Below, in pieces: positions 2,991-40,386 of a stretch of DNA of 64,000 nucleotides; the stretch's first letter is position 1, and each line of letters opens with the position of its first letter. Below the pieces are notes generated by a model. It worked only from the letters and a program-made list of their open reading frames with translations. It did no database searches and was not told the DNA's origin. This DNA comes from a virus. Lineage: Duplodnaviria; Heunggongvirae; Uroviricota; Caudoviricetes. Location: IMG/VR virus record IMGVR_UViG_2579778873_000001, positions 9,557-73,556 of that record. One strand, 5' to 3'. A program made the position numbers and the translations under genes.

Positions 2991-3581
2991 CTACACAAAA
3001 ACAGATGAGATATTGCTACGGTTGATCGATGTATTACCGCTGCATTGCAGGGTTACCGTGTTATGAGTGAAATAGCCTTCTGGTGTGCGCGGGGCGTCCA
3101 GTTGGTAACTCACGCTTTTGATAACAACGTCGGTAAGGGCTATGTTCCTACCTATGTTTAACGTTACTGTCTCCGGGCGACGACCGAATGGCGCTACATT
3201 GTTCAGTTCCGGCGATTCCATCTTCAGCAATGCTGTAATGGCTGCGTTCACTTCAAGTTGCGCGTTCGTTGTCGCCATGAAATCAATTACCAGATTAAAT
3301 TCAGGCGGTTGCTGACCTTCCCAAACAAGCATTGAGTTGAAGAGGGTTTTTGTTGTTACGCCGGTTGCGGTCTGAAGCGTATCTGCAAGAGAGCCAGCCG
3401 CAGCGCTAATACCACCAAGCAAACCTCCTACTGACTGGTTTTCAAATGGTGATTGCCACATTGATGATAGCTCTGCGGTAGATCCTTCACCGATATAACC
3501 GACGACCATATCCTCTGAAGAGAGGATATAAACCTTCATTAACGGACTTATTCCGTCAGGCATTATCGCGCCGCAAATCAA
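2991..3581 (-). CDS. Phage morphogenesis protein, unassigned
   Basis: 196-aa ORF in the structural operon. Confidence 0.45.
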   Translation of the reverse strand: MICGAIMPDGISPLMKVYILSSEDMVVGYIGEGSTAELSSMWQSPFENQSVGGLLGGISAAAGSLADTLQTATGVTTKTLFNSMLVWEGQQPPEFNLVIDFMATTNAQLEVNAAITALLKMESPELNNVAPFGRRPETVTLNIGRNIALTDVVIKSVSYQLDAPRTPEGYFTHNTVTLQCSGNTSINRSNISSVFV

Positions 3582-6134: not shown

Positions 6135-6413
6135 TCAGGATTCGCTTACCGTGAAGTTATCGCCTACGGTTACTTCTTTCGTAGTTGGTTCAACACTGAC
6201 GGCGCTTACGCTTTTATGTGCCTCCCTAACAGTGACTGTGCACTGTGCGGTTTTATTGCCGTCATTTGTTTTGATTGTCAGCACTGCCTGCCCGGCCTTA
6301 AGAGCGGTACATGTAGTGCCATCAACCTGGACAATATCAGGGTGATCTGACTCAACAGTGAAAGATTTGTCTGTTGCGTCAGATGGCGTGATAGTTACTT
6401 GAATGTTTGCCAT
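6135..6413 (-). CDS. Ig-like (Big_2-type) domain protein, virion decoration candidate
   Basis: 92 aa, T/V-rich beta-sandwich-like sequence typical of phage Ig-like domains. Confidence 0.5.
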   Translation of the reverse strand: MANIQVTITPSDATDKSFTVESDHPDIVQVDGTTCTALKAGQAVLTIKTNDGNKTAQCTVTVREAHKSVSAVSVEPTTKEVTVGDNFTVSES

Positions 6414-9284: not shown

Positions 9285-9583
9285 TCCCCCTTCCCTTCCC
9301 AAATCTCCCTGTTTTTTTGGTTATTCAGTGCGTTTCGTTGGTTGCATTCGTCGATCGTGCTGAATAACTGTTCAGCGTATGTCGGATACTTGTTTAACAG
9401 CACTGGCGTGTCTTCTGGCACTAAACAAGGGGAGTAGTCAATCAGATTTGCCTGCGGCCTGCTGGTGGCTTCTACGGTAATTTTCACTGGCACGCTGGTT
9501 GATGGCTTTTGCCCGTTCCCGCTGCATCCTGATAACGTCATCAGGCACACGTACATCGTTAATCCCAGCACGGCGTAACGCAT
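9272..9583 (-). CDS. o-spanin (Rz1-like outer-membrane lipoprotein)
   Basis: Lipobox LSGC after a hydrophobic signal (internal Met MRYAVLG...); starts inside the i-spanin gene in another frame and extends past it (overlapped architecture); periplasmic Cys residues. Confidence 0.55.
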   Translation of the reverse strand: MRYAVLGLTMYVCLMTLSGCSGNGQKPSTSVPVKITVEATSRPQANLIDYSPCLVPEDTPVLLNKYPTYAEQLFSTIDECNQRNALNNQKNREIWEGKGDQGS

Positions 9584-28853: not shown

Positions 28854-29466
28854 TCGTCAATTCAATCGCCATCTGATACAACGTCATTTCATCAGCATTG
28901 TGCCGCCTGAAATCTGCTTTACCGCCTATTTTTCCATCAGCATGAACAGGAACCAACCAGGGGTATTGCTCGCGGATCTCTGCTGGCGCTGCGTGTTGAT
29001 GGTGCCATTTACACAAAGGGAGGACGTATTTATGCGCGTTCTCTGCTGTTCTTCCGAAGATGTGGTGCAGGGATACCACAGGGCTATGCTGTCCGTGCAT
29101 ATGGCAGGCAATGCAGGGGAGAGCACCGATGGCAGTTTGTATCCGGCGCTCATCTGCTGTGAGTGTTCTGCCTTTCAGGCCGCGTGACGCGCGAGTTTTT
29201 TTGACAGGAGCAGAAGCGGCCTTCTCTTTTCTTCGCTGTTCATATTGCTTCGCTTTTTCAATTTTCTTTTGCCGATATTCAGGCGATGCGGCTTTTTCTC
29301 GCGCACGCTGCTGCTGGCGTTGAGCTTGCTGAAGACGCTTTGCCCTTTGTTCCTCCCGCCATTTCGGATCAGCCAGTTTTTGCAGGGCTTTTTGTGTCTG
29401 TTTCTCCCAATAGCTTTGCTTCATAGAAATACCCGGTTTGTCTACATAGCCGCTATGGTTGATCAA
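28849..29466 (-). CDS. HNH endonuclease, Ref-like (P1 recombination enhancement function family)
   Basis: 205 aa; basic N-terminal coiled region then HNH core (LPCIACHMHGQHSPVVSLHHIFGRTAENAHKYVLPLCKWHHQHAAPAEIREQYPWLVPVHADG); operator pair directly upstream. Confidence 0.5.
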   Translation of the reverse strand: MINHSGYVDKPGISMKQSYWEKQTQKALQKLADPKWREEQRAKRLQQAQRQQQRAREKAASPEYRQKKIEKAKQYEQRRKEKAASAPVKKTRASRGLKGRTLTADERRIQTAIGALPCIACHMHGQHSPVVSLHHIFGRTAENAHKYVLPLCKWHHQHAAPAEIREQYPWLVPVHADGKIGGKADFRRHNADEMTLYQMAIELTN

Positions 29467-29467
29467 A

Positions 29468-29506
29468 CATGTTAGAAAATCAAAATTGATTTTCTAACAC
29501 AAAATG
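29468..29506. promoter_or_regulatory. Palindromic double operator at a divergent promoter
   Basis: catgttagaaaatc / gattttctaacacaaaatg: two motifs as inverted repeats with a 6-bp spacer, between the ref-like gene and the rightward early operon. Confidence 0.55.
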
Positions 29507-29695
29507 AAGATACTTTTTTCAGACGCTATATCAGGAGGTCATGATGCTTGTCGCAATTAGTGCAATCCACCAGCAATCCGATACAGAAATTGGGTTGCTA
29601 TATGTCCTGTTTTTCACTGTCCTGGCGTTGTTTGAGCTGGGCATTGAACTCTTTGCTCTCATCAACTTTTGCGTAACGTTCCTGGGGAAACTTTG

Positions 29696-30307
29696 ATGTC
29701 AAAACGCATTATGAAAATTTACATCGCGGGTCCGATGACTGGTTATCCCGACTACAACCGCACAGCGTTTTTTTCGAAAGCAAAAGAGCTGATGGAGGTA
29801 GGGCATATTGTTATGAATCCGGCGCTGTTACCTGCTGGCCTCTGCCAGAGCGAATACATGGATATTTGCCTTGCAATGGTGCGTTCGGCTAATGCGGTCT
29901 ATTTGCTCAAGGGGTGGGAGGAATCAGTTGGCGCTCGTGCAGAGCACGAGCTGGCTAAAAAGCTGGGGCTGAATGTAATTTATGAGTCACCAACCAACAT
30001 TGAATGCCAGGTTGCTCCGCATATTTACCGGGAACTGGTCAATGCACTGCGTGATATCGCTGCTGTATATCACGGCACAGAACAGCTTCGTGAGCGTTTA
30101 GCCCATACCATTTCCTATTACCTGTCTTTATCTCATGAGCACAAGCTCCGCCAGAAGGTAATGATCAAATTTATCATGAGGTTATCGAAATCCCTGGCAA
30201 ACGCCGATCCAAAGAATCCATTACCGAAAGAGGCAATGAATTACCTGAAGTCCTGCAACGTTGTTTCTGAAGATGGCGTTCTTTTGGTTAGAAGGAGTTC
30301 TGTGTGA
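29696..30307 (+). CDS. DUF4406-like protein (nucleoside 2-deoxyribosyltransferase-like fold) with C-terminal extension
   Basis: Start at Met MSKRIMKIYIAGPMTGYPDYNR; the C-terminal segment PHIYRELVNALRD...QLRERLAHT is shared with the 39448..40386 protein. Confidence 0.5.
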   Translation: MSKRIMKIYIAGPMTGYPDYNRTAFFSKAKELMEVGHIVMNPALLPAGLCQSEYMDICLAMVRSANAVYLLKGWEESVGARAEHELAKKLGLNVIYESPTNIECQVAPHIYRELVNALRDIAAVYHGTEQLRERLAHTISYYLSLSHEHKLRQKVMIKFIMRLSKSLANADPKNPLPKEAMNYLKSCNVVSEDGVLLVRRSSV

Positions 30308-30621
30308 GCTGGCGGGGATGGGGAAGGGCAGAAATCATGATACTCCGCCAGTGCGCCGGGACTATGACAGTCGAGAGTATTGGGAGGCTGATCGGGCGTA
30401 CCGGTAGTGCTGTCAGAACCAAAGCGCGGCAACTGCGGATCTGCATGATTCTGAAAGGAGACTTTCACCCGTCAGCCAAATACCGGCAGGGCGATATAGA
30501 ACTGGCACGGCAGCTTCATCGGTGTGGTGTTCCCCGCCGTGAGATCGCAGAAAAACTCGAAATGCCCCTGGGCATGATTAATCAGTACGTTTATTTCGAA
30601 AGGAGAGTGTATGAAGTCTGA
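30304..30621 (+). CDS. Small hypothetical protein (possible DNA-binding)
   Basis: 105-aa ORF overlapping neighbours by 4 and 11 nt. Confidence 0.45.
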   Translation: MSWRGWGRAEIMILRQCAGTMTVESIGRLIGRTGSAVRTKARQLRICMILKGDFHPSAKYRQGDIELARQLHRCGVPRREIAEKLEMPLGMINQYVYFERRVYEV

Positions 30622-31120
30622 AGGTTTAACGCCCGCACAACTGGCAGAGCGTAACGCTGAGTATGTAACGGAAATTTCCCGACTTGAGAAAGAGCGCGCG
30701 GCGCTGGCTGCGGAGAATGCGAGACTGAAGGCGATATGTGAGGATCGCCGCACGTTCATTATGAATGGCGTGCAGCTTGGTTTTATCAAGGTGCCAACAG
30801 TGGAAATAGATCCAGCTCTTGAAACAATTCGTATCGCCCTATCACCACAAAAAACTACTCCTGCGACCGACACTTTCCTGGATGAAGTGAAGACTGAAGC
30901 ACGCAAGGAGGGCGCTTACTTTGTGGCGAACAGAATGCTGGCTGCCTGGGTAGCTGGTTTTATTGATGATACTGCGAAGAACGCCGCGGATATTGCCCGG
31001 ATGATTCTTACCTCTACTGAGTTTATGGCTAATGCGCCGGAAGGCGATTTTGACCGCTCATTCTCTGATGGCGTTCTCGAAGATATCGCCGAACAGCTTC
31101 GTAAAGGAGTCATCCAATGA
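30611..31120 (+). CDS. Hypothetical protein, paralog of 31924..32856
   Basis: Coiled-coil [14 protein letters not shown] and C-terminal domain both recur in the downstream paralog. Confidence 0.45.
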   Translation: MKSEGLTPAQLAERNAEYVTEISRLEKERAALAAENARLKAICEDRRTFIMNGVQLGFIKVPTVEIDPALETIRIALSPQKTTPATDTFLDEVKTEARKEGAYFVANRMLAAWVAGFIDDTAKNAADIARMILTSTEFMANAPEGDFDRSFSDGVLEDIAEQLRKGVIQ

Positions 31121-31602
31121 GCAAGATTGATTATCAGGCACTGCGTGAGGCGGCGGAACGTGCAATTCCAGCAATGGAACGCCTGTTAATGTTGCCAGCT
31201 GATGATGATTTGTTAAGTGAACAGGAACTTAAAGATTACGGTGTGGATATTGATGCGCTCAACGCCTTCAAATTTCTGGCCGGACCAGAAACCGTGCTGG
31301 CACTACTGGATGAACGGGAAAGAAACCAGCAGTACATCAAACGCCGCGACCAGGAGAACGAGGATATTGCGCTAACGGTAGGGAAGTTGCGCGTTGAGCT
31401 TGAGGCAGAAAAACAGCGGGCAAAGGATCTGTTTATGGAAAATGCTCGGCTTAAGTCAGGTATAGCCGGTCTGATACACCTCGGTATTCGATATGCAGAT
31501 GTTGATGTCATGAAAATTGCTGGAGATGCCCAGCTTTCTACCCCATGCACTGACAGCATCATAAACAGCATTGCAACAGGCATTCGCATCAAAGGAGAGT
31601 GA
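31117..31602 (+). CDS. Ead/Ea22-like protein
   Basis: N-terminal YQALREAAE signature and coiled-coil; ends in GIRIKGE encoded by a conserved junction sequence. Confidence 0.5.
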
Positions 31603-31603
31603 G

Positions 31604-31927
31604 ATGACCACATCGCATTATGCAATCACCCAGGAAAAAGTATTTCGCTTGCTCGAACGTCTGGAGGCGCTCGCCACGGAGGAGGGTATATCCCCGGAGA
31701 TGCTGGTTGAGTGCAGCCGTGTGATATTGCGTCGCAAGAACGACATCGCGCGGCTGACATCTGGCGCACCATCCGTATCAGCCAGTCCAACGCTTTATTG
31801 CAGCTTCTGCAACAAATCCCAGCACACCGTTAAAAAGTTAATTGCTGGGGACAACGCTTTCATCTGCAACGAGTGCGTGAAAGATTGCAACAACATTATC
31901 CAGGAAGATCAAAGGGAATCAGCATGA
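31604..31927 (+). CDS. ClpX-type C4 zinc-finger domain protein
   Basis: Start at Met after the junction RBS; C-terminal [37 protein letters not shown] matches the ClpX N-terminal zinc-binding domain. Confidence 0.55.
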
Positions 31928-32856
31928 AATTTTCCAAATTTTCTGAGTTGGTGAATCGTATTTTGTCCAACAACCACAGCCATCGTCGCGATATGGATGT
32001 AACGATCGTTGTTCATTCGCCTGGCAGCATTGGTTCAACACCTTCAGTTGAGGTTCAGTCAATTCACGCTGGTTTTGATTGGGATTCCGGGAAAGTGCTG
32101 ATTTTCCCAGCACAGCCACTGACCACGCTAACACCAGAACAGATTACTGATATTACTGATAGTGTGCGCAAAGGTCAGTCCTGGCACGCATATCAGGAAT
32201 ACAAGAAGCATAAAGAGCAGTTGGAAAAATTATCGATTGAACTTGATGCCGCAAAACAGCGCATTGCAGAGCTGGAGGGTAATTGCGCGGCGCTGGCGGC
32301 GGAGAATGCGGGGCTGAAGGCGGGACATTCATATTTCTCATATGGCTCTGAGCATAATTTCGAATGGCACAAAACTGCTGAGGAAGCTATCGAATCGGCT
32401 GAGGCTGCAATCGACGACTATCGCGGTGATGCTTGCGATGGATGGAGCGAAGAGGTCGATAGTATTTGCTGGGGAATCATCATGCAATCGTCAACGAAGG
32501 TTGGCGAACGACCACGCAACGAGGATGACTGTTGTGATCCTGCGATCGATACGATTTGCGATTATGCGCTTCTGCCTAATATCGACACCCCAGCAACCGA
32601 CGCTTTCCTGGCTGAAGTACGTGCGGAGGCACGCAACGAGGGGATTAACTACACCGCAAGCCGTCTTGCTGCTGCGTTCAATCACGGATTTATCAATAAG
32701 TCTTTGCGTGAAGTTTTCGACGTTACACGCATGATTTTGTCAGCGAAAGAAGAGTTGGCTAATGAACCGCATCCGCTTGATGGCCTGTCCGGTGAATATG
32801 CGGAGAAATCCCTTGAAGAATGGGCGGAACAGATTCGCAACGGAAGCAGCCAGTGA
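31924..32856 (+). CDS. Hypothetical protein, paralog of 30611..31120
   Basis: ATGA overlap with the upstream stop; shares the [12 protein letters not shown] block and C-terminal domain with its paralog. Confidence 0.5.
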
Positions 32857-33128
32857 ATATCGACACGACAATAACGATCGATACGCTCCTGAATACCGGT
32901 CTGGCACTTCTCGGTTGGTTTTTCATCATGTCCCGTACATGGCGATGGCTGGGTTCCATTTTCCTGAAACAGTGGAAAAAACGGCGCAAACAGGAACTAC
33001 GCCAGAAGGCATTAGAAGCGTTCTATGACGCATTTGAACTTGGCAGCATTGAACCAGGCACAACAGCGAGGATAGCGACAAAAGGCGACCTGATGATAGT
33101 GATGTTCAGACAGGAGAAAACAAAATGA
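32820..33128 (+). CDS. Small membrane protein, start uncertain
   Basis: One hydrophobic helix (LLNTGLALLGWFFIM); C-terminal tail EPGTTARIATKGDLMIVMFRQEKTK recurs as a 28-aa mini-ORF at 35454..35540. Confidence 0.35.
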   Translation: MGGTDSQRKQPVNIDTTITIDTLLNTGLALLGWFFIMSRTWRWLGSIFLKQWKKRRKQELRQKALEAFYDAFELGSIEPGTTARIATKGDLMIVMFRQEKTK

Positions 33129-33349
33129 CAGAACAAACGATGACAAATCGCGAACTTGTTGATGCCGCGATTGAACTTGCTGGCGATTTTTATTCCATGA
33201 TGGGTTACGAGCATCGACCTGGTTTTAAGTATTGGGAGTCACCGCATCCGCAAGAACAACAGGTGTTTGAAATGGCTTGCCGTGCTTTTGAGTTTATTCG
33301 CGGTTCTGATGTGATGGAGGCCGTTGCCGACTTGGAGGATGAAGAGTGA
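33125..33349 (+). CDS. Small hypothetical protein
   Basis: 74-aa ORF, ATGA-coupled to neighbours. Confidence 0.4.
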   Translation: MTEQTMTNRELVDAAIELAGDFYSMMGYEHRPGFKYWESPHPQEQQVFEMACRAFEFIRGSDVMEAVADLEDEE

Positions 33350-33657
33350 GCACAATTAAAGAAATGCCGGTAGAACGTGATGAATATGGCTGCTGGACAC
33401 ATCCGGAGTATGAAAAGTTTTGCGCAGGCCGTGAATATATTTCCACTGAGGAATTTGACGCCTGGATGAAGGAAAATAATCTTCAGTGGACTATTCGCAG
33501 TATGGATGAAGATGATTTTGATCTGGACGCAGCTGGTCCCGATATTGCCGCCTGGGAACCGGAGCGACCAGAGGGTGAAGGCTGGTTTGTTGGCTCTATT
33601 CATGACACTGAAGATGGTCCGGTTTGTATCTGGCTGCGTGAGAAGGTTGCCGCATGA
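33346..33657 (+). CDS. Small hypothetical protein
   Basis: 103-aa ORF, translationally coupled. Confidence 0.4.
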
Positions 33658-34346
33658 CCCAGGCTCTGCATGAAGTGAATTTATATAGCCGTATTGATGG
33701 TTCTGGCTATAGAAACATATGGGTTGTTGGTGATCTGCATGGTTGCTACACCAGACTGATGTCCGAACTCCATCGTGTGGATTTTGACCCGGCGCAGGAT
33801 TTACTGATATCGGTTGGCGACCTTATCGATCGCGGTACTGAAAATGTCGAATGTCTGGAACTATTGCAGATGCCCTGGTTCAGGGCAGTAATGGGGAACC
33901 ATGAGCGGTTGATGCTTGATGCGTTAAGTCCTGATGGCAACGTGAATAACTGGCTAATGAATGGCGGACAATGGTTCTTCATGCTGGACACTGATCAGGA
34001 AATATTAGCCTGGGCGCTGGTGGAGCTGGTAAAGCGTCTGCCCTATATCATTGAGCTGAACACCGGGCATGAAACTATCGTTATAGCCCATGCCGACTAT
34101 CCAGGTGGAGAGTACCAGTTCGGTAAGGATGTGTCGCTTTTTGATGTTGTCTGGTCGCGCAGTCGCGTCGGTGATTCGATAGATGGCATTGGTGGAGAAA
34201 TCACAGGCGCAGATCGCTTTATCTTTGGGCACACACCGGTACGAAGACCAAAAGCATACTGGAATCAGCACTACATAGACACGGGCGCGGTTTTTTGCGG
34301 AAATCTGACGCTAATGCAGGTGAAGGGAGGGCAGCTTAAAGTCTGA
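33654..34346 (+). CDS. ppp: Ser/Thr protein phosphatase, lambda-phosphatase (calcineurin-like) family
   Basis: Metallophosphatase motifs GDLHG, GDLIDRG, GNHE in canonical order; 230 aa. Confidence 0.8.
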
Positions 34347-34373
34347 TCAAATCATTTACGCACTCAAAATTAC

Positions 34374-34407
34374 GTTAGAACGTTGATTTTAGTTTTCTAA
34401 CATATTA
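34374..34407. promoter_or_regulatory. Operator motif pair upstream of 34445
   Basis: agttttctaacatatt (34392-34407) plus weaker half cgttagaacg (34374-34383). Confidence 0.45.
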
Positions 34408-34444
34408 TTTTACCGCTCGGAACAAAACAGAGTCGGTATACATT

Positions 34445-35440
34445 ATGAGTGCAATAATCACACCTCATTTCGTAAACGGAGCTGGTGTGGCTGTCTTTCC
34501 GGTAGACAAGCCCACCAGTAACTACATTGGCGCAGGTCGCCGTTTCATTATCTCCCCACTTCCGCGTGAACAGGCTGAAAACACTCCAGATGGCGTAGTG
34601 GATCTGAATTATTCGCTGGTTGCCAACCAGTCTCTGAAACCGTTTTTTCAAAGCGAGCGCGTATTTAACGCGTTGGGCGGTGAAGATTCGCTTGTTCATT
34701 GGGTAAGTTCCAATATCCACGATTGCCAGGCGCACGATAAGCGCGATTGCAGCCACCAGCTAACCACTCATTTCTATAACGGCTCTGCCGTTCGCCTGTG
34801 CTGGAAGCATGATGCGGAATACATGATGAAGGGGTACAGCAAGCTGGACGACCAGTTATCCCTGAATCGTGCCAACTGGGTTATGAACTGGGCTGCGAGC
34901 GAGTTAAAACTACCGCCAGAACGCGATCTGAGTATGGTTGAACTCACTTTTTGGGCCATTCGCCGGAATCTGAAAGATGAGCTGCCAGATGAAGCCGGTC
35001 GCATTGCATTTTGTCAGCCAAAAACTGAAATCCCTACCGGTACGCTGAAAGAATCAGATATCACCTGGGAGCACAGTACCCGCGAGCTGGTGGACATAAC
35101 CGCAGAGCAGATCGTCAACCTGTCTGTAGATGAGGATTCCGGCCTGCTTTATATGCGCCGACCAAAAGCGGTCCTCGGTAAAAGCCCGGCTTATCTCCGG
35201 TTTGTGGTTTCTCGTCCGTGCATCGGATGCGGTGGCAAAGTTAACCACCCGTTCATGTACCGCGCCCGCTCGTTAAACGAACACGACCGCTGGGCTGTTC
35301 CTCTTTGCGATGACTGCGCCAGAAGCGCAGAAAACGATGTCCGGGCATGGGAAAAAGCACATGGCATACGCCTTTACGTAGCCGCTAACCAGCTTTTTGA
35401 CTTCGCCATCGAGCGCGGAGTAATCACGTTTAATAACTGA
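34445..35440 (+). CDS. Hypothetical protein with C-terminal Cys cluster (zinc-ribbon-like)
   Basis: 331 aa; CIGCGG...CDDC near the C-terminus. Confidence 0.45.
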   Translation: MSAIITPHFVNGAGVAVFPVDKPTSNYIGAGRRFIISPLPREQAENTPDGVVDLNYSLVANQSLKPFFQSERVFNALGGEDSLVHWVSSNIHDCQAHDKRDCSHQLTTHFYNGSAVRLCWKHDAEYMMKGYSKLDDQLSLNRANWVMNWAASELKLPPERDLSMVELTFWAIRRNLKDELPDEAGRIAFCQPKTEIPTGTLKESDITWEHSTRELVDITAEQIVNLSVDEDSGLLYMRRPKAVLGKSPAYLRFVVSRPCIGCGGKVNHPFMYRARSLNEHDRWAVPLCDDCARSAENDVRAWEKAHGIRLYVAANQLFDFAIERGVITFNN

Positions 35441-35536
35441 TTGGGATAAAGGCATGAGCATGGAGCCAGGCAGCACCATCCGCATTACTACAAAGGGAGG
35501 TCTGGCAATCATGATGTATCGGAAGGAGGAAGCCAA

Positions 35537-35731
35537 ATGAATAAAGCCTCACCAGCAGAGTTAAGAGCAAGTCTAGAGATGGCGCATAGCCTTGCTCAAA
35601 TTGGAGTCAGGTTTGTACCAATTCCAGTTGAAACAGATGAAGAATTTCAAATGTTAGCGGCATCAGCAGCACAAAAGCTGGAAATCATGGCGGATAAAGC
35701 AGAGAAAGCGGAAGGAGCAGATAGTGAGTGA
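35537..35731 (+). CDS. Small acidic hypothetical protein
   Basis: 64-aa ORF with RBS supplied by the upstream mini-ORF tail. Confidence 0.35.
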   Translation: MNKASPAELRASLEMAHSLAQIGVRFVPIPVETDEEFQMLAASAAQKLEIMADKAEKAEGADSE

Positions 35732-36626
35732 AACTAACTATCAGGAGTTGCGCGAGGCAGCGGAGCAGGCAACGCAAGATGAATGGGTAGCATATATTTT
35801 GCCGGGACATAACGGCATTTATCCTGCGCGCACGTCTGAGGGTAGGCATTGCGGATACTTTATTGACTGGCCTGGCATTGATGGACAGAGGAACGCTAGT
35901 GCCAATGCCCGTTATATCGCGGCTATCCCACCAAAAGTTGCACTGGCACTACTGGATGAGATCAACGCATTAGAGGAAACGCGTATCAACGATGTTTGCC
36001 GTATTGTGGAACTAACAAAACAACTGGAGTCGGCAAAATCAAAACTCAACGAGCAGCGCGAGCATTACGAGGGAGTAATCGCGGATGGAGGTAAGCGCAT
36101 AGCAGAACTGGAAAAACAATGCGCTGAATCGGAGCGAAAAGCATTAAGCAACTTTGAAGAGTGTGCTGCGATGGCTGAACGTATCGAAGAGTTGCAGACA
36201 AAATCTGCACCAGATTCGTTTGGCATCATCGGTGAAAATATTCGAACACAGGATAATCGAATAACGTCAGACCCTATGTTTTGTGTGTATCAAAAGCGCG
36301 AAATCGTTGTTGATGCTGATTATGACTATGACCGGATTGTCTGGGTTGATGAAGATGGCAATGAAGCCAATAAACGCCAAAGTCGTCGTCTCGAACTACT
36401 TCACGAAAACTTTCGAGAGCCACCAGAAAAATGGCGGCGCGTTGCTGTGAAAGATATTGATGAATTCGTTACCTGCTGTTTCACCGAACAGGGTTGTAAA
36501 GACTACCTGGCAGCCAATGGTCACAATCTTCGCTTGCCATTTATATATGTAAAAAGCGGTTTCAGGAATGCTGAATATATCGGCATAAGAAACTGGCTTG
36601 CTGGTATTCGCATCAAAGGAGAGTGA
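35724..36626 (+). CDS. Ead/Ea22-like protein (long form)
   Basis: N-terminal YQELREAAE and coiled-coil; C-terminus GIRIKGE from the conserved junction. Confidence 0.5.
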   Translation: MSETNYQELREAAEQATQDEWVAYILPGHNGIYPARTSEGRHCGYFIDWPGIDGQRNASANARYIAAIPPKVALALLDEINALEETRINDVCRIVELTKQLESAKSKLNEQREHYEGVIADGGKRIAELEKQCAESERKALSNFEECAAMAERIEELQTKSAPDSFGIIGENIRTQDNRITSDPMFCVYQKREIVVDADYDYDRIVWVDEDGNEANKRQSRRLELLHENFREPPEKWRRVAVKDIDEFVTCCFTEQGCKDYLAANGHNLRLPFIYVKSGFRNAEYIGIRNWLAGIRIKGE

Positions 36627-36627
36627 T

Positions 36628-36885
36628 ATGGACGAATCAAGAAAGCAGTTTTTGGAGTTCGCGAAAAAGCAAAATTTAAGCCTTGTATATGGTGATTGCG
36701 GGTATGTTTATTCATCCACGGAAATGGCATGGAGGGCATGGCAGGCATCTCGCGCAGCTATCGAGATAAAACTCGATGACAAAGTGATGGCTGAGGATGA
36801 TTTCGGCAAAGGACACAACTGCGCTATCGATTATTGCGCTGACGCCATCCGCGCCGCTGGCATTCGCATTAAAGGAGGTGAGTAA
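36628..36885 (+). CDS. Small hypothetical protein
   Basis: Start at Met after the junction RBS; ends AGIRIKGGE. Confidence 0.4.
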   Translation: MDESRKQFLEFAKKQNLSLVYGDCGYVYSSTEMAWRAWQASRAAIEIKLDDKVMAEDDFGKGHNCAIDYCADAIRAAGIRIKGGE

Positions 36886-37248
36886 TGCGTGTGGCATGTA
36901 TCGGCTTGTTACCGTACCCGACTCGTTTTTGGGCTTCTGCGCTAATTGCAAAGCCACATGTCCTGATGGCTGACAACATCATCCCGGCACCAAAGCGCCG
37001 CCATACCGGTATTGCAGCGGCACGACGAGCAGCAAAGAGACGCAGGAGAGCAAAGCGATGAAAAACCGTAAAGCAAAGATTCTGTTAGTTCGTAGAAACG
37101 CTCCTGGCGTCTGGCAGTGGGTGAGACTCAGCAACCGACGGATGGGGTTGATGAAATATTACGGGATGATGGATTGTGGTTTTTGCAAAAAGCCCAGCGC
37201 GGCGCAAAACCGCTGGAAAAAACCATTTGCGCACTAAAGGAGAGTGAT

Positions 37249-37458
37249 ATGGCTATTGCCGCAAGTTACACCATGCATCTCTATTGTGACTGCCTCCAGT
37301 GTACAGATGGCAAATATAAGTCGCCAGACTTCGGTGAGTATATAGGTACGTCATGGGCTGGCTGTGCAAAAGAGGCGCGCAAGGATGGCTGGCGAATAAG
37401 CAAAGACAAAACGCGTGCTTTTGCGCCCGGGCATAAAGTTTTGAGGATTAACAAATGA
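37249..37458 (+). CDS. Small Cys-containing hypothetical protein
   Basis: Start at Met after the fourth junction copy; CDCLQC motif; ORF-track N-terminal extension rejected. Confidence 0.4.
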   Translation: MAIAASYTMHLYCDCLQCTDGKYKSPDFGEYIGTSWAGCAKEARKDGWRISKDKTRAFAPGHKVLRINK

Positions 37459-38297
37459 CCACTATTACCAAAGAGCGACTGCTGACAATCAAGCAGTGGC
37501 GCGAAACATACGGACCTGGTAGCAACGTTGTACTGCCAGCAGAAGAAGCGGAAGAACTGGCACGAATTGCTCTGGCATCGCTGGAAGCAGAACCAGTTGC
37601 TTATATTTTCAAACATCCGGCTGGAAAATTATTCTGGGCTTTAACGGATGAAAGCAATAAAGAGCAATCGGACGTTATTCCTGTTTATGCCGCCCCGCCA
37701 GTACCGGTAGTACCTGCTGCATTACCTGAGAACGACGATGAGGACGGGCATGACATTGATTATCTTGAGCCATCTGAAGTTTACGCGCTTGGGCGAACAT
37801 CTGGCTGGAACGCCTGCCGAGCTGCCATGCTTCATAGTGCCGAACCTGTAAGCCAGGCTTACAAGTTGAACGCGCTGGCTGGCAACTCTCCGGTAATTCC
37901 GGATGGTTCAGCGGACATGCTTCGGCGCTGGCTGGCATTTGGCCACGGCATGCAAAATGCAGGATGCCAACTACCTCACAACCTGATTGCGGAAACCGAG
38001 GCCATGCTCGCAGCCGCGCCGCAACTACCCGGCAGTGAACCCGCTACCGTGCCGGGTAAATGGATTCCGGTAAGCGAGCGGATGCCGGAAATGGGTGAAA
38101 AGCAGCGCTATGTATTAGCTGCTGATTTCAAAAATAACTATTGGCCCAACATACCAAACACTCAGGTTGGCGTATATGGCGACTGGTTTGATGATGGCAA
38201 TCCAACGTGGGATGACGGCGACGGCGAAGACCTGCATCTCAAAGAGGTAACCCACTGGATGCCGCTACCAGAACCGCCGCAGGAGGTGAATCAATGA
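37455..38297 (+). CDS. DUF551-domain protein
   Basis: C-terminal WIPVSERMPE...THWMPLPEPP block characteristic of DUF551. Confidence 0.6.
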   Translation: MTTITKERLLTIKQWRETYGPGSNVVLPAEEAEELARIALASLEAEPVAYIFKHPAGKLFWALTDESNKEQSDVIPVYAAPPVPVVPAALPENDDEDGHDIDYLEPSEVYALGRTSGWNACRAAMLHSAEPVSQAYKLNALAGNSPVIPDGSADMLRRWLAFGHGMQNAGCQLPHNLIAETEAMLAAAPQLPGSEPATVPGKWIPVSERMPEMGEKQRYVLAADFKNNYWPNIPNTQVGVYGDWFDDGNPTWDDGDGEDLHLKEVTHWMPLPEPPQEVNQ

Positions 38298-38361
38298 GCT
38301 GGCCTGAAGCATTCACCACGGTAGGAATTGTGATGGCGGCAGCACTGGGTTTGTATTCAAT

Positions 38362-38613
38362 TTGTCGCTGGTGGTAACGATGGGAAAAATAACTTTTGTA
38401 GTCGAATTTGAGGATGGTAAAGAGCCACCTGTTAGCGCCAATCTTGATGTTGCTGGTGGCAGGCTTGTTTCGGTTCTATTTGGTGACTACCGAGATGATT
38501 TCTTCCAACCAGAAGAAGTTGATGTGGTGCGAGAGGCATTAAACGAGTTAAGTGTTGATAACGATGATGCTCATGCGGAAATCATCCAAAAAATGGAACT
38601 GCTAACTCACTAA
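38362..38613 (+). CDS. Small hypothetical protein
   Basis: 83-aa ORF; start may be internal Met (MGKITFVVEF). Confidence 0.4.
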   Translation: MSLVVTMGKITFVVEFEDGKEPPVSANLDVAGGRLVSVLFGDYRDDFFQPEEVDVVREALNELSVDNDDAHAEIIQKMELLTH

Positions 38614-38695
38614 ATTATCAATTATGGTGCTATCACCTACGACACCGAGAGAAAATTTATAATGTCAAAAGTAAATGTTTTGATTTTTTCAGCAA

Positions 38696-39085
38696 TTGTT
38701 GGCTTTGGTTTTACTGCCGGAGTGCAGATTTATATTACGTGGGAAAAAATCATCAACTACGTATGGAGTTGTTTTATTAAGTGAGGTAAGTATGTGGAGA
38801 GGTAATAGTCATGGCAAAAGCCAGATGATACTTACCGAACATCAGCTCGACCACAAAACCAATAAATCACGTTCAGTATATTTGCTTCGCCACAATAGCC
38901 GCGTAAGGAATACCGTACTGGAGCAAAATCTGACCGTTGAAATGGATAATTACGGGGGCTTCAAGCCAACAATATCGCTTGATGATTTTCCTCGTGGTTT
39001 AAGCGAAAGAGAAGCAATGCTGAAATTAGCAGAATGGCTACAAAGATTAAGCATTGCTATTGAAGATAACTGGTCTGAACCTTAA
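38696..39085 (+). CDS. Hypothetical protein in AT-rich patch
   Basis: ORF in visibly AT-rich DNA; start uncertain. Confidence 0.35.
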   Translation: MLALVLLPECRFILRGKKSSTTYGVVLLSEVSMWRGNSHGKSQMILTEHQLDHKTNKSRSVYLLRHNSRVRNTVLEQNLTVEMDNYGGFKPTISLDDFPRGLSEREAMLKLAEWLQRLSIAIEDNWSEP

Positions 39086-39091
39086 ATTAAT

Positions 39092-39466
39092 ATGATGACA
39101 CTAAAACATTTTCTTGACCGCCCATTAGGGGCGGCAGCCGCAGGCTATGACTTTAATTATATGGATTGCATGTCTTATACTGCCAATGCATACGACCATT
39201 CGTTCAGCCTGCTGTTTAATTCTTTAAGAATATTGCCGGAAACAGAAGTTGGAGAGCTTCATTTATGGATATTGGGCTTTATCGCGGCTGTCGTTGGTAT
39301 TGCTGTATGGCCTTTTATTTTCTGGCTGGTGGCTGTTGTAGTGTGGTTTAAGTGCAAGACATACCGGAGAAAGTATTTCTTAGGTGATGGAATGACTGAT
39401 ATTGCCAAAATGAACATTGAAAAATGGACTAAGGAATGTGAAAAGAAATGGCGCAAAAAGAAATGA
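39092..39466 (+). CDS. Small membrane protein (two predicted TM helices) with basic tail
   Basis: LHLWILGFIAAVVGIAVWPFIFWLVAVVVWF then KKWRKKK; AT-rich. Confidence 0.4.
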   Translation: MMTLKHFLDRPLGAAAAGYDFNYMDCMSYTANAYDHSFSLLFNSLRILPETEVGELHLWILGFIAAVVGIAVWPFIFWLVAVVVWFKCKTYRRKYFLGDGMTDIAKMNIEKWTKECEKKWRKKK

Positions 39467-40386
39467 CCAGAATCACTGAAGAGCGTATATCAGAGATTAT
39501 TTCCCGTATCGAAATGTATGGTCACGGTGCTGGATATACGGCAGATGAAGTATTGGCACTTGCCCAAATGGCTTTGGCGGCTTGCAAAGATGATAAAAAA
39601 ATGAAGCTTATCGACTTGTTAGTGAAGGAGCTGCCTAAGTGCGGCGGGTGGCCTGATGGAATGAGTTATTGTTACCTACCCAGTGTCAATTTAATGGCAC
39701 CATGCGCGACTTTTGCTTTTGGCTCAGACCACAAAAAAGACACTTTCTTTGGGCGCAATTTTTGTTGTGAGATTGAGCTTCCAATTGGTGACCTTGATAG
39801 CGATGAATACCAGTCAGTTGTCACTCGCGAACAATACGAATCAGCTCTCATAGCGTCGCAGAAAGTCGAGTTCAATGGTGATGAACTTGAAAGTAAGACT
39901 TACAGGTTGGATTTTGGGCAATGGCTGGAACAGCAACGCGGGAAAATCGATGTGGACTGTGGTTGTGTGTCCACTGAAACATTCATGCACTGGCTGCGGG
40001 TAGCTTACGAGGCTGGCAACTATCCGGATATTCCGGATAGTTCGGTGCCAGCGCCAGGAAAGGGCGTCACCGGTGAACGTATCCGAATTAAGCCGCATGT
40101 TTATCGCGAACTGGTTAACCGTCTCCACGATACAGCGATCAAGTGTGCTGGCACCCAGCAATTACGAGAAAGAATTAGCCGTGTTTTGGGCGACGTTATT
40201 ACACCAGATCATCATAAACAAGCCGAGAAAAGTGGCCTGGAAAGGTGTCACCTTGAGGCGGCATTAAACATTAAGCCGGGGCATACGCTTGGCATTATTG
40301 ATGCACTATTGGTTCATAAGATGGCCAGGGCTTTATTGCCGCTGGTGGCTGAAAAGCATGAGGCGGGCCATGCCAACGAAAGCTGA
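39448..40386 (+). CDS. Hypothetical protein sharing a C-terminal module with the DUF4406-like protein
   Basis: PHVYRELVNRLHD...QQLRERISR parallels PHIYRELVNALRD...EQLRERLAH of 29696..30307. Confidence 0.45.
   Translation: MAQKEMTRITEERISEIISRIEMYGHGAGYTADEVLALAQMALAACKDDKKMKLIDLLVKELPKCGGWPDGMSYCYLPSVNLMAPCATFAFGSDHKKDTFFGRNFCCEIELPIGDLDSDEYQSVVTREQYESALIASQKVEFNGDELESKTYRLDFGQWLEQQRGKIDVDCGCVSTETFMHWLRVAYEAGNYPDIPDSSVPAPGKGVTGERIRIKPHVYRELVNRLHDTAIKCAGTQQLRERISRVLGDVITPDHHKQAEKSGLERCHLEAALNIKPGHTLGIIDALLVHKMARALLPLVAEKHEAGHANES

Follow-up and report, generated by a model that had tools for sequence, protein, structure and literature searches.

Junction A, a recurring sequence between early genes of a P1/D6-like phage-plasmid, as a probable portable gene connector

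The DNA analysed here, referred to as the window, is a stretch of 64,000 nucleotides (nt) from a virus of the class Caudoviricetes (IMG/VR record IMGVR_UViG_2579778873_000001, positions 9,557 to 73,556). It represents a P1/D6-like phage-plasmid with an accessory region common to lambdoid phages. In this region a short sequence, here called junction A, recurs where one gene ends and the next begins. We propose that junction A is a portable gene connector, or "boundary sequence", of about 28–37 bp that is exchanged by homologous recombination; on the sequence evidence given below, we assign this reading a probability of about 75%. The junction is found between many combinations of partner genes, the similarity of otherwise different loci is limited to it, and the insertions and deletions that distinguish related elements are bracketed by its copies.

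Matches to the pattern GGYATTCGCATYAAAGGAG are present in the window at 31579–31597, 36603–36621 and 36859–36877, all on the plus strand, and nowhere else in the 64 kb. Three copies were thus seen against 0.04 expected by chance, and none of 100 shuffled sequences contained three or more matches. In the frame of the upstream gene, each of these canonical copies (J1, J2 and J3, Table 1) encodes G-I-R-I-K-G-(G)-E, after which come the stop codon and the following gene's ATG. The stop and start are arranged as TGAgATG or TGAtATG, with the ATG 1 nt after the stop, or overlap as TAATG. The codons AAA-GGA-GAG hold a perfect Shine-Dalgarno (SD) sequence, AAGGAG, 6 nt ahead of the next ATG. An earlier note on the window had described the junction at four gene boundaries. 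Three of them carry the canonical copies, whereas the fourth (J4, at 37224) is degenerate and frameshifted. The repeat finder gives 71% identity over 28 nt for the J4 site (37224–37251); its right half, AAAGGAGAGTGATATG, is exact, and its left half is decayed and out of frame, so that the upstream open reading frame (ORF) of 59 amino acids (aa) ends in ...KKPFAH with its TAA at 37235–37237, inside the motif. All four copies extend across an ORF's stop codon to the ATG that opens the following ORF. The GIRIKGE or GIRIKGGE tail that the note assigned to three proteins is present at J1, J2 and J3. The note called these proteins unrelated, which is correct for their C-terminal parts but not for the N-terminal Ead_Ea22 domain shared by the 161-aa and the 300-aa protein. 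The latter's C-terminal domain differs from that of the former, and its residues 147–299 correspond to PHROG 3205.

The third tailed protein, of 85 aa, has no Pfam-A match in the local Pfam copy, so that no Ead_Ea22 domain was found in it; its PF26207 label comes from precomputed data on homologues. Its nearest relatives, with 61–66% identity, are nin-region proteins of P22-like Salmonella phages (e.g. ST64T orf-86). One E. coli protein, encoded on a 90-kb contig (P0001), is 98% identical to it. Two further roles of the junctions were considered and rejected. An Rfam search of 29000–40000 gave no covariance-model match at E ≤ 1, and no significant fold, hairpin or inverted repeat was detected at the four copies (z-scores −1.72, −0.23, −0.37 and −0.31), which gives no support to an RNA element. 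Consensus scans gave no promoter or terminator site at the junctions, and promoter-like sites were fewer than in shuffled sequence.

A scan of viral contigs with the exact GGYATTCGCATYAAAGGAG pattern yielded at least 120 loci. The 200 nt on each side of 102 unique contexts were clustered; the cluster and comparison counts given in this text refer to these contexts, which are those among the matches listed. There are 16 clusters on the upstream side and 19 on the downstream side, which the motif links in 50 combinations. One upstream sequence precedes many different downstream genes, and conversely. When both flanks differ, the shared similarity has a median length of 28 nt (10th–90th percentile, 21–37). 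When one flank is shared, the similarity edges are located at −10 to 0 or at +18 to +29 relative to the motif start, and they coincide with the limits of (ccgcgcc)GCTGGCATTCGCATCAAAGGAGAGTGA(t)ATG; positions 0–18 of this segment were set by the search pattern, and the 10 and 9 positions flanking them were free. Among contexts with the same upstream and different downstream clusters, the last matching position falls at +27 to +31 in 43 of 109 comparisons. The ATG occupies +25 to +27 in at least 90% of the 50 combination representatives. In a common variant (e.g. downstream cluster D0) the motif runs on as AAAGGAGAGGAGCATGG without a stop codon, and the upstream ORF continues beyond the ATG of the next gene (…GIRIKGEEHGNKTRG).

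The same picture was obtained with 11 P1/D6-like loci that were chosen by overall similarity, regardless of the motif. In L121 and L124 the 300-aa gene's 3′ end, left of J2, is followed directly by the 58-aa gene located to the right of J3. In L125, L127 and L130 the 3′ end of a gene of the 161-aa type, left of J1, precedes the same 58-aa gene. L122 has kept the gene upstream of J4 and carries a different gene downstream. An explicit alignment of the viral contig L007 shows the left side of J2 joined to the right side of J4. The 58-aa and 59-aa genes are gained or lost as units among the relatives. When 5,426 complete E. coli genomes were compared with window positions 36450–37050, similarity halted at about 36630–36634 and restarted at about 36844–36870. 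The 85-aa gene between these points has a DNA match in none of the 5,426 genomes, and the best match joins its two flanks. Breakpoints of gene gain and loss therefore coincide with the junctions in relatives, a positive outcome of the test that the earlier note had proposed, and its suggestion that the junctions are module boundaries used for cassette shuffling gains support from these bracketed events and from the 50 partner combinations. Within 30 nt of the four copies we counted 24 of the 139 similarity ends in the 11 relatives, 10 of them at J1; the 4.2 expected under uniformity serve as a descriptive comparison only, since similarity ends in related genomes are not independent.

Junction A is not confined to phage-plasmids. 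A 40-nt consensus is present in 376 phage records, including lambda (at the end of ea22), P7, P22-like Salmonella phages and many Stx phages. The P7 copy, at the upf88.3/upf89.0 boundary, matches at 40 of 40 nt, and HK620 carries the exact motif at the hkaG/hkaF boundary. Among the complete E. coli genomes, 2,944 of 5,426 (54%) contain the consensus, at 6,138 places (5,801 chromosomal and 337 on plasmids) and up to 10 times per genome. Co-resident copies are thus common. A fuzzy search of the fetched loci found very few degenerate copies.

These data are compatible with the following route. The connector keeps one fixed register: the tail ((R)AAGIRIKGE), a strong SD, AAGGAG, within the K-G-E codons, a stop, and a start 1 nt further on. 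It is placed between many genes of the early and accessory operons of lambdoid prophages and P1/D6-like phage-plasmids that reside together in E. coli. As the same sequence stands between many genes in shared cells, homologous recombination between the copies, by RecA or by phage Rad52-like annealases, would swap, insert or delete genes or C-terminal domains. The copies in the window are direct repeats along the direction of transcription; exchange between elements would accordingly swap what lies upstream or downstream, and exchange within one element would delete what lies between. Stop, ribosome-binding site (RBS) and start would remain intact in every product, which would allow the recombinants to survive, and the fixed stop/SD/start register, through which we infer translational coupling, would make each product immediately expressible. 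Repeated exchange would, in turn, hold the copies identical. Published minimal pairing segments are 23–27 bp for Red-beta and 31–34 bp for RecA (PMC3945230), and the identity shared at the junctions (median 28 nt, up to 37) is compatible with these lengths.

Several observations weigh against this reading. The uniformity of the core in the viral contigs arises by construction, since this sample was picked by an exact 19-mer. Nor is junction A a privileged site: the boundaries at 31118, 32855, 35447, 35727 and 37456, which are without it, gather 7–10 similarity ends each in the 11 relatives and are about as hot. A further 62 of the 139 ends (45%) fall inside genes, for the most part where conserved Ea22 segments begin or end. 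Finally, selection may act on the tail at the peptide level, in which case the conservation need not stem from recombination alone. In favour of the connector reading, three other boundaries, at 33126, 33347 and 35538, have none of the 139 ends.

The breakpoints away from the junction also speak for a function-first explanation after Hendrix. Here, a useful C-terminal peptide with a coupled start is conserved, and illegitimate joints are made anywhere and filtered by selection, so that the junction shows where joints are tolerated and not where they are made. The PF26207 proteins of Salmonella, Enterobacter and Cronobacter fit such an explanation. They end in AIRAAG-[IL]-K-V-K-E (native end AAGIKVKE), which is related to the junction tail and differently encoded, the G-[IL]-K-V-K-E part being kept with different codons across the three genera. 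In the AlphaFold model of the 85-aa protein (mean pLDDT, the predicted local distance difference test, 78) the tail forms a short strand, 80–82, after the last helix, 66–76; the confidence at the tail end is moderate. The K-G-E codons are themselves the SD, and the deletion in phage D6 described below is a microhomology event. Nevertheless, illegitimate joints would not be expected to give an identical 28–37 nt with the same synonymous codons in 50 combinations. The identity often extends past the stop to the ATG (the 43 of 109 comparisons above), and J4 has retained the DNA but not the peptide. Moreover, the tail of the window's PF26207 member is GIRIKGGE, an Ea22-type allele that few members of the family have (R at alignment position 80 in 4 of 107 aligned sequences and I at alignment position 81 in 4 of 107) and that would be expected from tail exchange. 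We therefore regard the function-first explanation as unlikely.

In phage D6 (L123 7526–7580 against window 36856–37061) a fusion via the microhomology CAAAGGAGA/CAAAGAGA attaches the junction to the final codons of the 58-aa gene. This fusion removes the 58-aa gene, and the Ea22-like ORF reads beyond its usual stop. It appears to be an example of a non-homologous joint beside the linker.

The use of the same synonymous codons in unrelated contexts, the identity that often passes the stop codon up to the ATG and the DNA similarity retained by the out-of-frame J4 point to junction copies that are identical by descent at the DNA level. The GIRIKGGE allele of the window's PF26207 member fits an exchange within a homologous tail. 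The likeliest view is that an element comprising the C-terminus and the translation start is conserved, that this conservation opens it to homologous exchange, and that the exchange spreads one allele widely. A codon-degenerate pattern, GGNATHCGNATHAARGGNGARTGA, scanned in one genome per species, gave 47 matches, of which about 33 are identical to the lambda ea22 end, about 9 are chance matches and 5 are genuine. All five genuine matches use the canonical codons, a sample too small for a dN/dS-type test. The approximately 33 assemblies with the identical lambda ea22 3′ end (L133–L177; Streptococcus, Streptomyces, Prevotella, Bacillus, Pseudomonas and others) carry it mostly on low-coverage contigs of roughly 1 kb. 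Such ends in unrelated taxa are most simply accounted for by contamination of public assemblies with lambda DNA.

The tail, written as (R)AAG-I-[RK]-[IV]-K-(G)-E, might alternatively be a portable C-terminal module under selection in its own right, serving as a terminal beta-strand or a docking tag, which we consider rather improbable. It could be common to otherwise unrelated early phage proteins, namely those with Ea22 C-terminal domains and those of the PF26207 family, and its common function would keep the DNA similar enough to serve as a recombination linker. If this were true, the array of junction A and of the second connector described below (connector B) would be a standardised cassette system, independent of any recombinase, linking the gene pool of lambdoid prophages to that of P1-like phage-plasmids. 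The ClpX-zinc-finger protein encoded just after J1 was considered as a possible reader of the tail; it represents only 1 of the 19 downstream partner clusters.

The recurrence could also be a matter of common descent only, the tail being the conserved C-terminus of the Ea22-like family and the copies being paralogous. Two of the three tailed proteins of the window are indeed Ead_Ea22 members, and about 9 of the 16 upstream clusters have the Ea22 coiled-coil segment in common. Ea22 proteins have been reported to end, without exception, in K/R-G-E (+GE), the significance of which was called unknown (Dydecka et al. 2020, PMC7093339). Ea22 genes are, however, mosaic, with unrelated domains standing between the coiled coil and the tail (PMC10834534). 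In our data BLASTP links between the upstream proteins are confined to the shared coiled coil, and the final domains have no mutual match. The tail is also found on non-Ea22 genes, namely the 85-aa PF26207 member and short ORFs, and after removal of the tail no hidden Markov model (HMM) similarity of the upstream C-terminal domains to the PF26207 family was detected. Furthermore, the downstream partners vary independently of the upstream ones, and the similarity reaches beyond the stop into the start of the next gene. Common descent as the sole cause is thus very unlikely. The +GE end is identical to the tail encoded by junction A; what is different here is that the tail is tied to a DNA connector, that its K-G-E codons are the SD of the next gene and that it occurs outside Ea22 genes as well. 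A simple explanation would be that the +GE end is the protein-level shadow of the DNA connector.

A short, oriented and recurring site that flanks single-gene cassettes recalls the target of a dedicated recombinase or nuclease, such as integron attC or the sites of homing endonucleases. The same region encodes Ref and a DUF968 protein, which one D6 record labels an HNH endonuclease. The resemblance to attC cassettes consists in single, promoterless, co-oriented genes gained and lost at a short recurring site. In contrast to attC, junction A has no attC-like hairpin (neither a significant hairpin or inverted repeat nor an Rfam match was obtained) and no fixed crossover point, the similarity edges being spread across the 28–37 nt. 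It is located inside coding sequence and carries an RBS. The annotations of the 11 related regions and of the surroundings of the HK620 copy contain no integrase-type gene, and in particular no tyrosine-recombinase integrase with an attI site. Phages of different families possess the motif and share no neighbouring enzyme. We consider a site-specific system extremely unlikely; general homologous recombination is the simplest explanation for exchange at junction A.

Two of the hot boundaries without junction A, 31118 and 32855, carry the second connector. Connector B, CAGCTTCGCAAAGGAGGCA(A/G)CCAGTGA, encodes ...QLRKGG(N/S)Q followed by a stop that overlaps the next start as GTGA. In the fetched loci it was found in 75 copies in 65 contexts with many upstream and downstream partners, and was absent from the reversed-sequence control. 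HK620 (L128) has a copy at 3510–3540 on the minus strand, at the hkaH/hkaG boundary. Taken together, the six boundaries of the window with either connector hold 44 of the 77 boundary-associated similarity ends.

The earlier note had further described a second pattern of the junction kind, shared by 33050–33128 and a 28-aa mini-ORF at 35454–35540. The similarity is real (76% mean column identity in an alignment of 123 columns that includes some flanking sequence), but the pattern is no linker. The first half is the 3′ end of a full-length DUF4752 gene, and the mini-ORF, labelled a 28-aa DUF4752 family protein in related plasmids by the Prokaryotic Genome Annotation Pipeline (PGAP), matches the DUF4752 profile at positions 59–83 only and is thus a fragment of such a gene. 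The two tails share 15 of 25 residues, as ordinary diverged homologues do. The relatives match the window through the ATGAG at 35454–35458 and diverge thereafter, which indicates that an in-frame fusion has linked a resident start codon to the final 26 codons of a truncated DUF4752 paralogue. The mini-ORF uses the RBS and ATGAG that in the relatives belong to the gene after DUF968, and it overlaps the DUF1382 gene by ATGA. Homology to lambdoid DNA starts at the DUF1382 ATG or up to 10 nt upstream of it (window 35528–35538). The DUF4752 3′ fragment would have been retained as a 28-codon leader that stays coupled, by ATGA, to the imported DUF1382 gene. Phages and the complete E. coli genomes yielded no full-length DUF4752 gene whose 3′ end is a near-identical match to the mini-ORF. 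By its sequence, the second pattern is apparently the scar of a single import and not a recurring linker.

The coordinates of the junctions and of the genes around them are given in Table 1. Between 29.6 and 38.3 kb the window contains two runs of close-packed genes on the plus strand. This region resembles phage D6 and many non-mobilizable plasmids of about 90 kb from E. coli and Salmonella with P1/D6-like gene content (Ref, Icd-like, Pol III theta/Hot and HumD-like neighbours). Window positions 30500–38500 match lambdoid Stx phages, phiV10 and P1/P7 piecewise at about 90–95% identity; HK620 was also compared. No record in either of the collections searched covers 80% or more of this 8-kb region, which is therefore strongly mosaic. 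Related near-palindromes, GTTAGAAAATCAAAATTGATTTTCTAAC and GTTAGAACGTTGATTTTAGTTTTCTAAC, are found at 29471–29499 and 34374–34402. They are located in the only two sizeable intergenic gaps, each heading a string of plus-strand genes, and they look like repressor operator sites, for which they are candidates. A simple sigma-70 scan found no promoter at either gap. In a related plasmid (L131 3916–5124) an IS200/IS605-type TnpB gene is inserted between a 103-aa gene and a phosphatase gene; apart from this insertion, the block from DUF4752 to the phosphatase gene is invariant.

Table 1. Junctions, connectors, genes and breakpoint sites of the window (positions in nt of the window).
Feature	Position	Strand	Remarks
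Connector B copy 1, GAACAGCTTCGTAAAGGAGTCATCCAATGA	31091–31120	+	Encodes …EQLRKGVIQ and stop; ATGA overlap into Ea22-like gene; 10 similarity ends
161-aa Ead/Ea22-like gene, GIRIKGE tail	31117–31602	+	Pfam PF13935, E 6.4e-33
Junction A copy J1	31576–31606	+	End of 161-aa Ead/Ea22-like gene (…ATGIRIKGE), SD AAGGAG
J1 stop/start	TGA 31600–31602, ATG 31604–31606	+	ATG of ClpX-zinc-finger gene
ClpX-type zinc finger gene	31604–31927	+	Pfam
Connector B copy 2, GAACAGATTCGCAACGGAAGCAGCCAGTGA	32827–32856	+	Encodes …EQIRNGSSQ and stop; GTGA overlap into DUF4752 gene; 10 similarity ends
Full-length DUF4752 gene	32853–33128	+	Pfam PF15944, E 1.1e-41; 3′ end is half of the second pattern
DUF968 gene	34445–35440		Pfam
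28-aa mini-ORF	35454–35540	+	Pfam DUF4752 positions 59–83 of 84, E 4e-8
DUF1382 gene, lambda orf63-like	35537–35731		Pfam
300-aa gene, Ead/Ea22-like N-terminal domain, GIRIKGE tail	35724–36626	+	Pfam PF13935, E 1.2e-24
Junction A copy J2	36600–36630	+	End of 300-aa Ead/Ea22-like gene (…LAGIRIKGE), SD
J2 stop/start	TGA 36624–36626, ATG 36628–36630	+	ATG of 85-aa gene
85-aa gene, single-gene cassette between J2 and J3	36628–36885	+	Precomputed PF26207 family
Junction A copy J3, extended form cgcgccgctGGCATTCGCATTAAAGGAGGTGAGTAATG	36850–36887	+	End of 85-aa gene (…IRAAGIRIKGGE)
J3 stop/start		+	TAATG overlap with 58-aa gene
Two small genes between J3 and J4	58 aa, 36885–37061; 59 aa, 37058–37237	+	
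Junction A copy J4, degenerate and frameshifted	37221–37251	+	ATG 37249–37251 of 69-aa gene
DUF551 gene	37455–38297		Pfam
Intragenic breakpoint sites	31285, 31417, 32312, 32584, 35876, 35955, 36096		

That homologous recombination is directed to short conserved boundary sequences is an established model, credited to Susskind & Botstein 1978 and, for HK620, to Clark et al. 2001 (both as described in PMC3233612; see also PMC3974807). The likeness to junction A is close: a short sequence is kept between otherwise unrelated genes of early operons, mosaic joints coincide with it, and HK620 has the exact motif. What differs here is the host element, a P1/D6-like phage-plasmid, the presence of three to four direct copies, the counts of partners and the prevalence. 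Junction A is thus a well-documented instance of an already known kind of element. Relaxed recombination by phage Rad52-like recombinases likewise gives mosaics over short or diverged homologies of matching lengths (De Paepe et al. 2014, PMC3945230). In that work recent exchanges were reported only among lambda-like phages or among members of the P1-P2-Mu group, whereas the P1/D6-like element analysed here and lambdoid phages have junctions and cassettes in common, at about 91–95% identity. A full-text literature search for the peptide or DNA string returned a single match, an unrelated physiology paper in which the DNA string is probably a phage lambda-derived primer.

The origin of phage mosaicism is debated between homologous exchange at short conserved linkers and random illegitimate joining followed by selection. 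Junction A offers a clean and abundant natural test case, with a defined length of 28–37 bp, more than 6,000 places in E. coli genomes and dozens of partner combinations; the bracketed cassettes and J4 as an out-of-frame relic copy add to its value. It reveals no new kind of system and adds quantitative support to the boundary-sequence model. With respect to the biology of these elements, the findings mean that P1/D6-like phage-plasmids draw on the same pool of accessory genes as the lambdoid and Stx phages.

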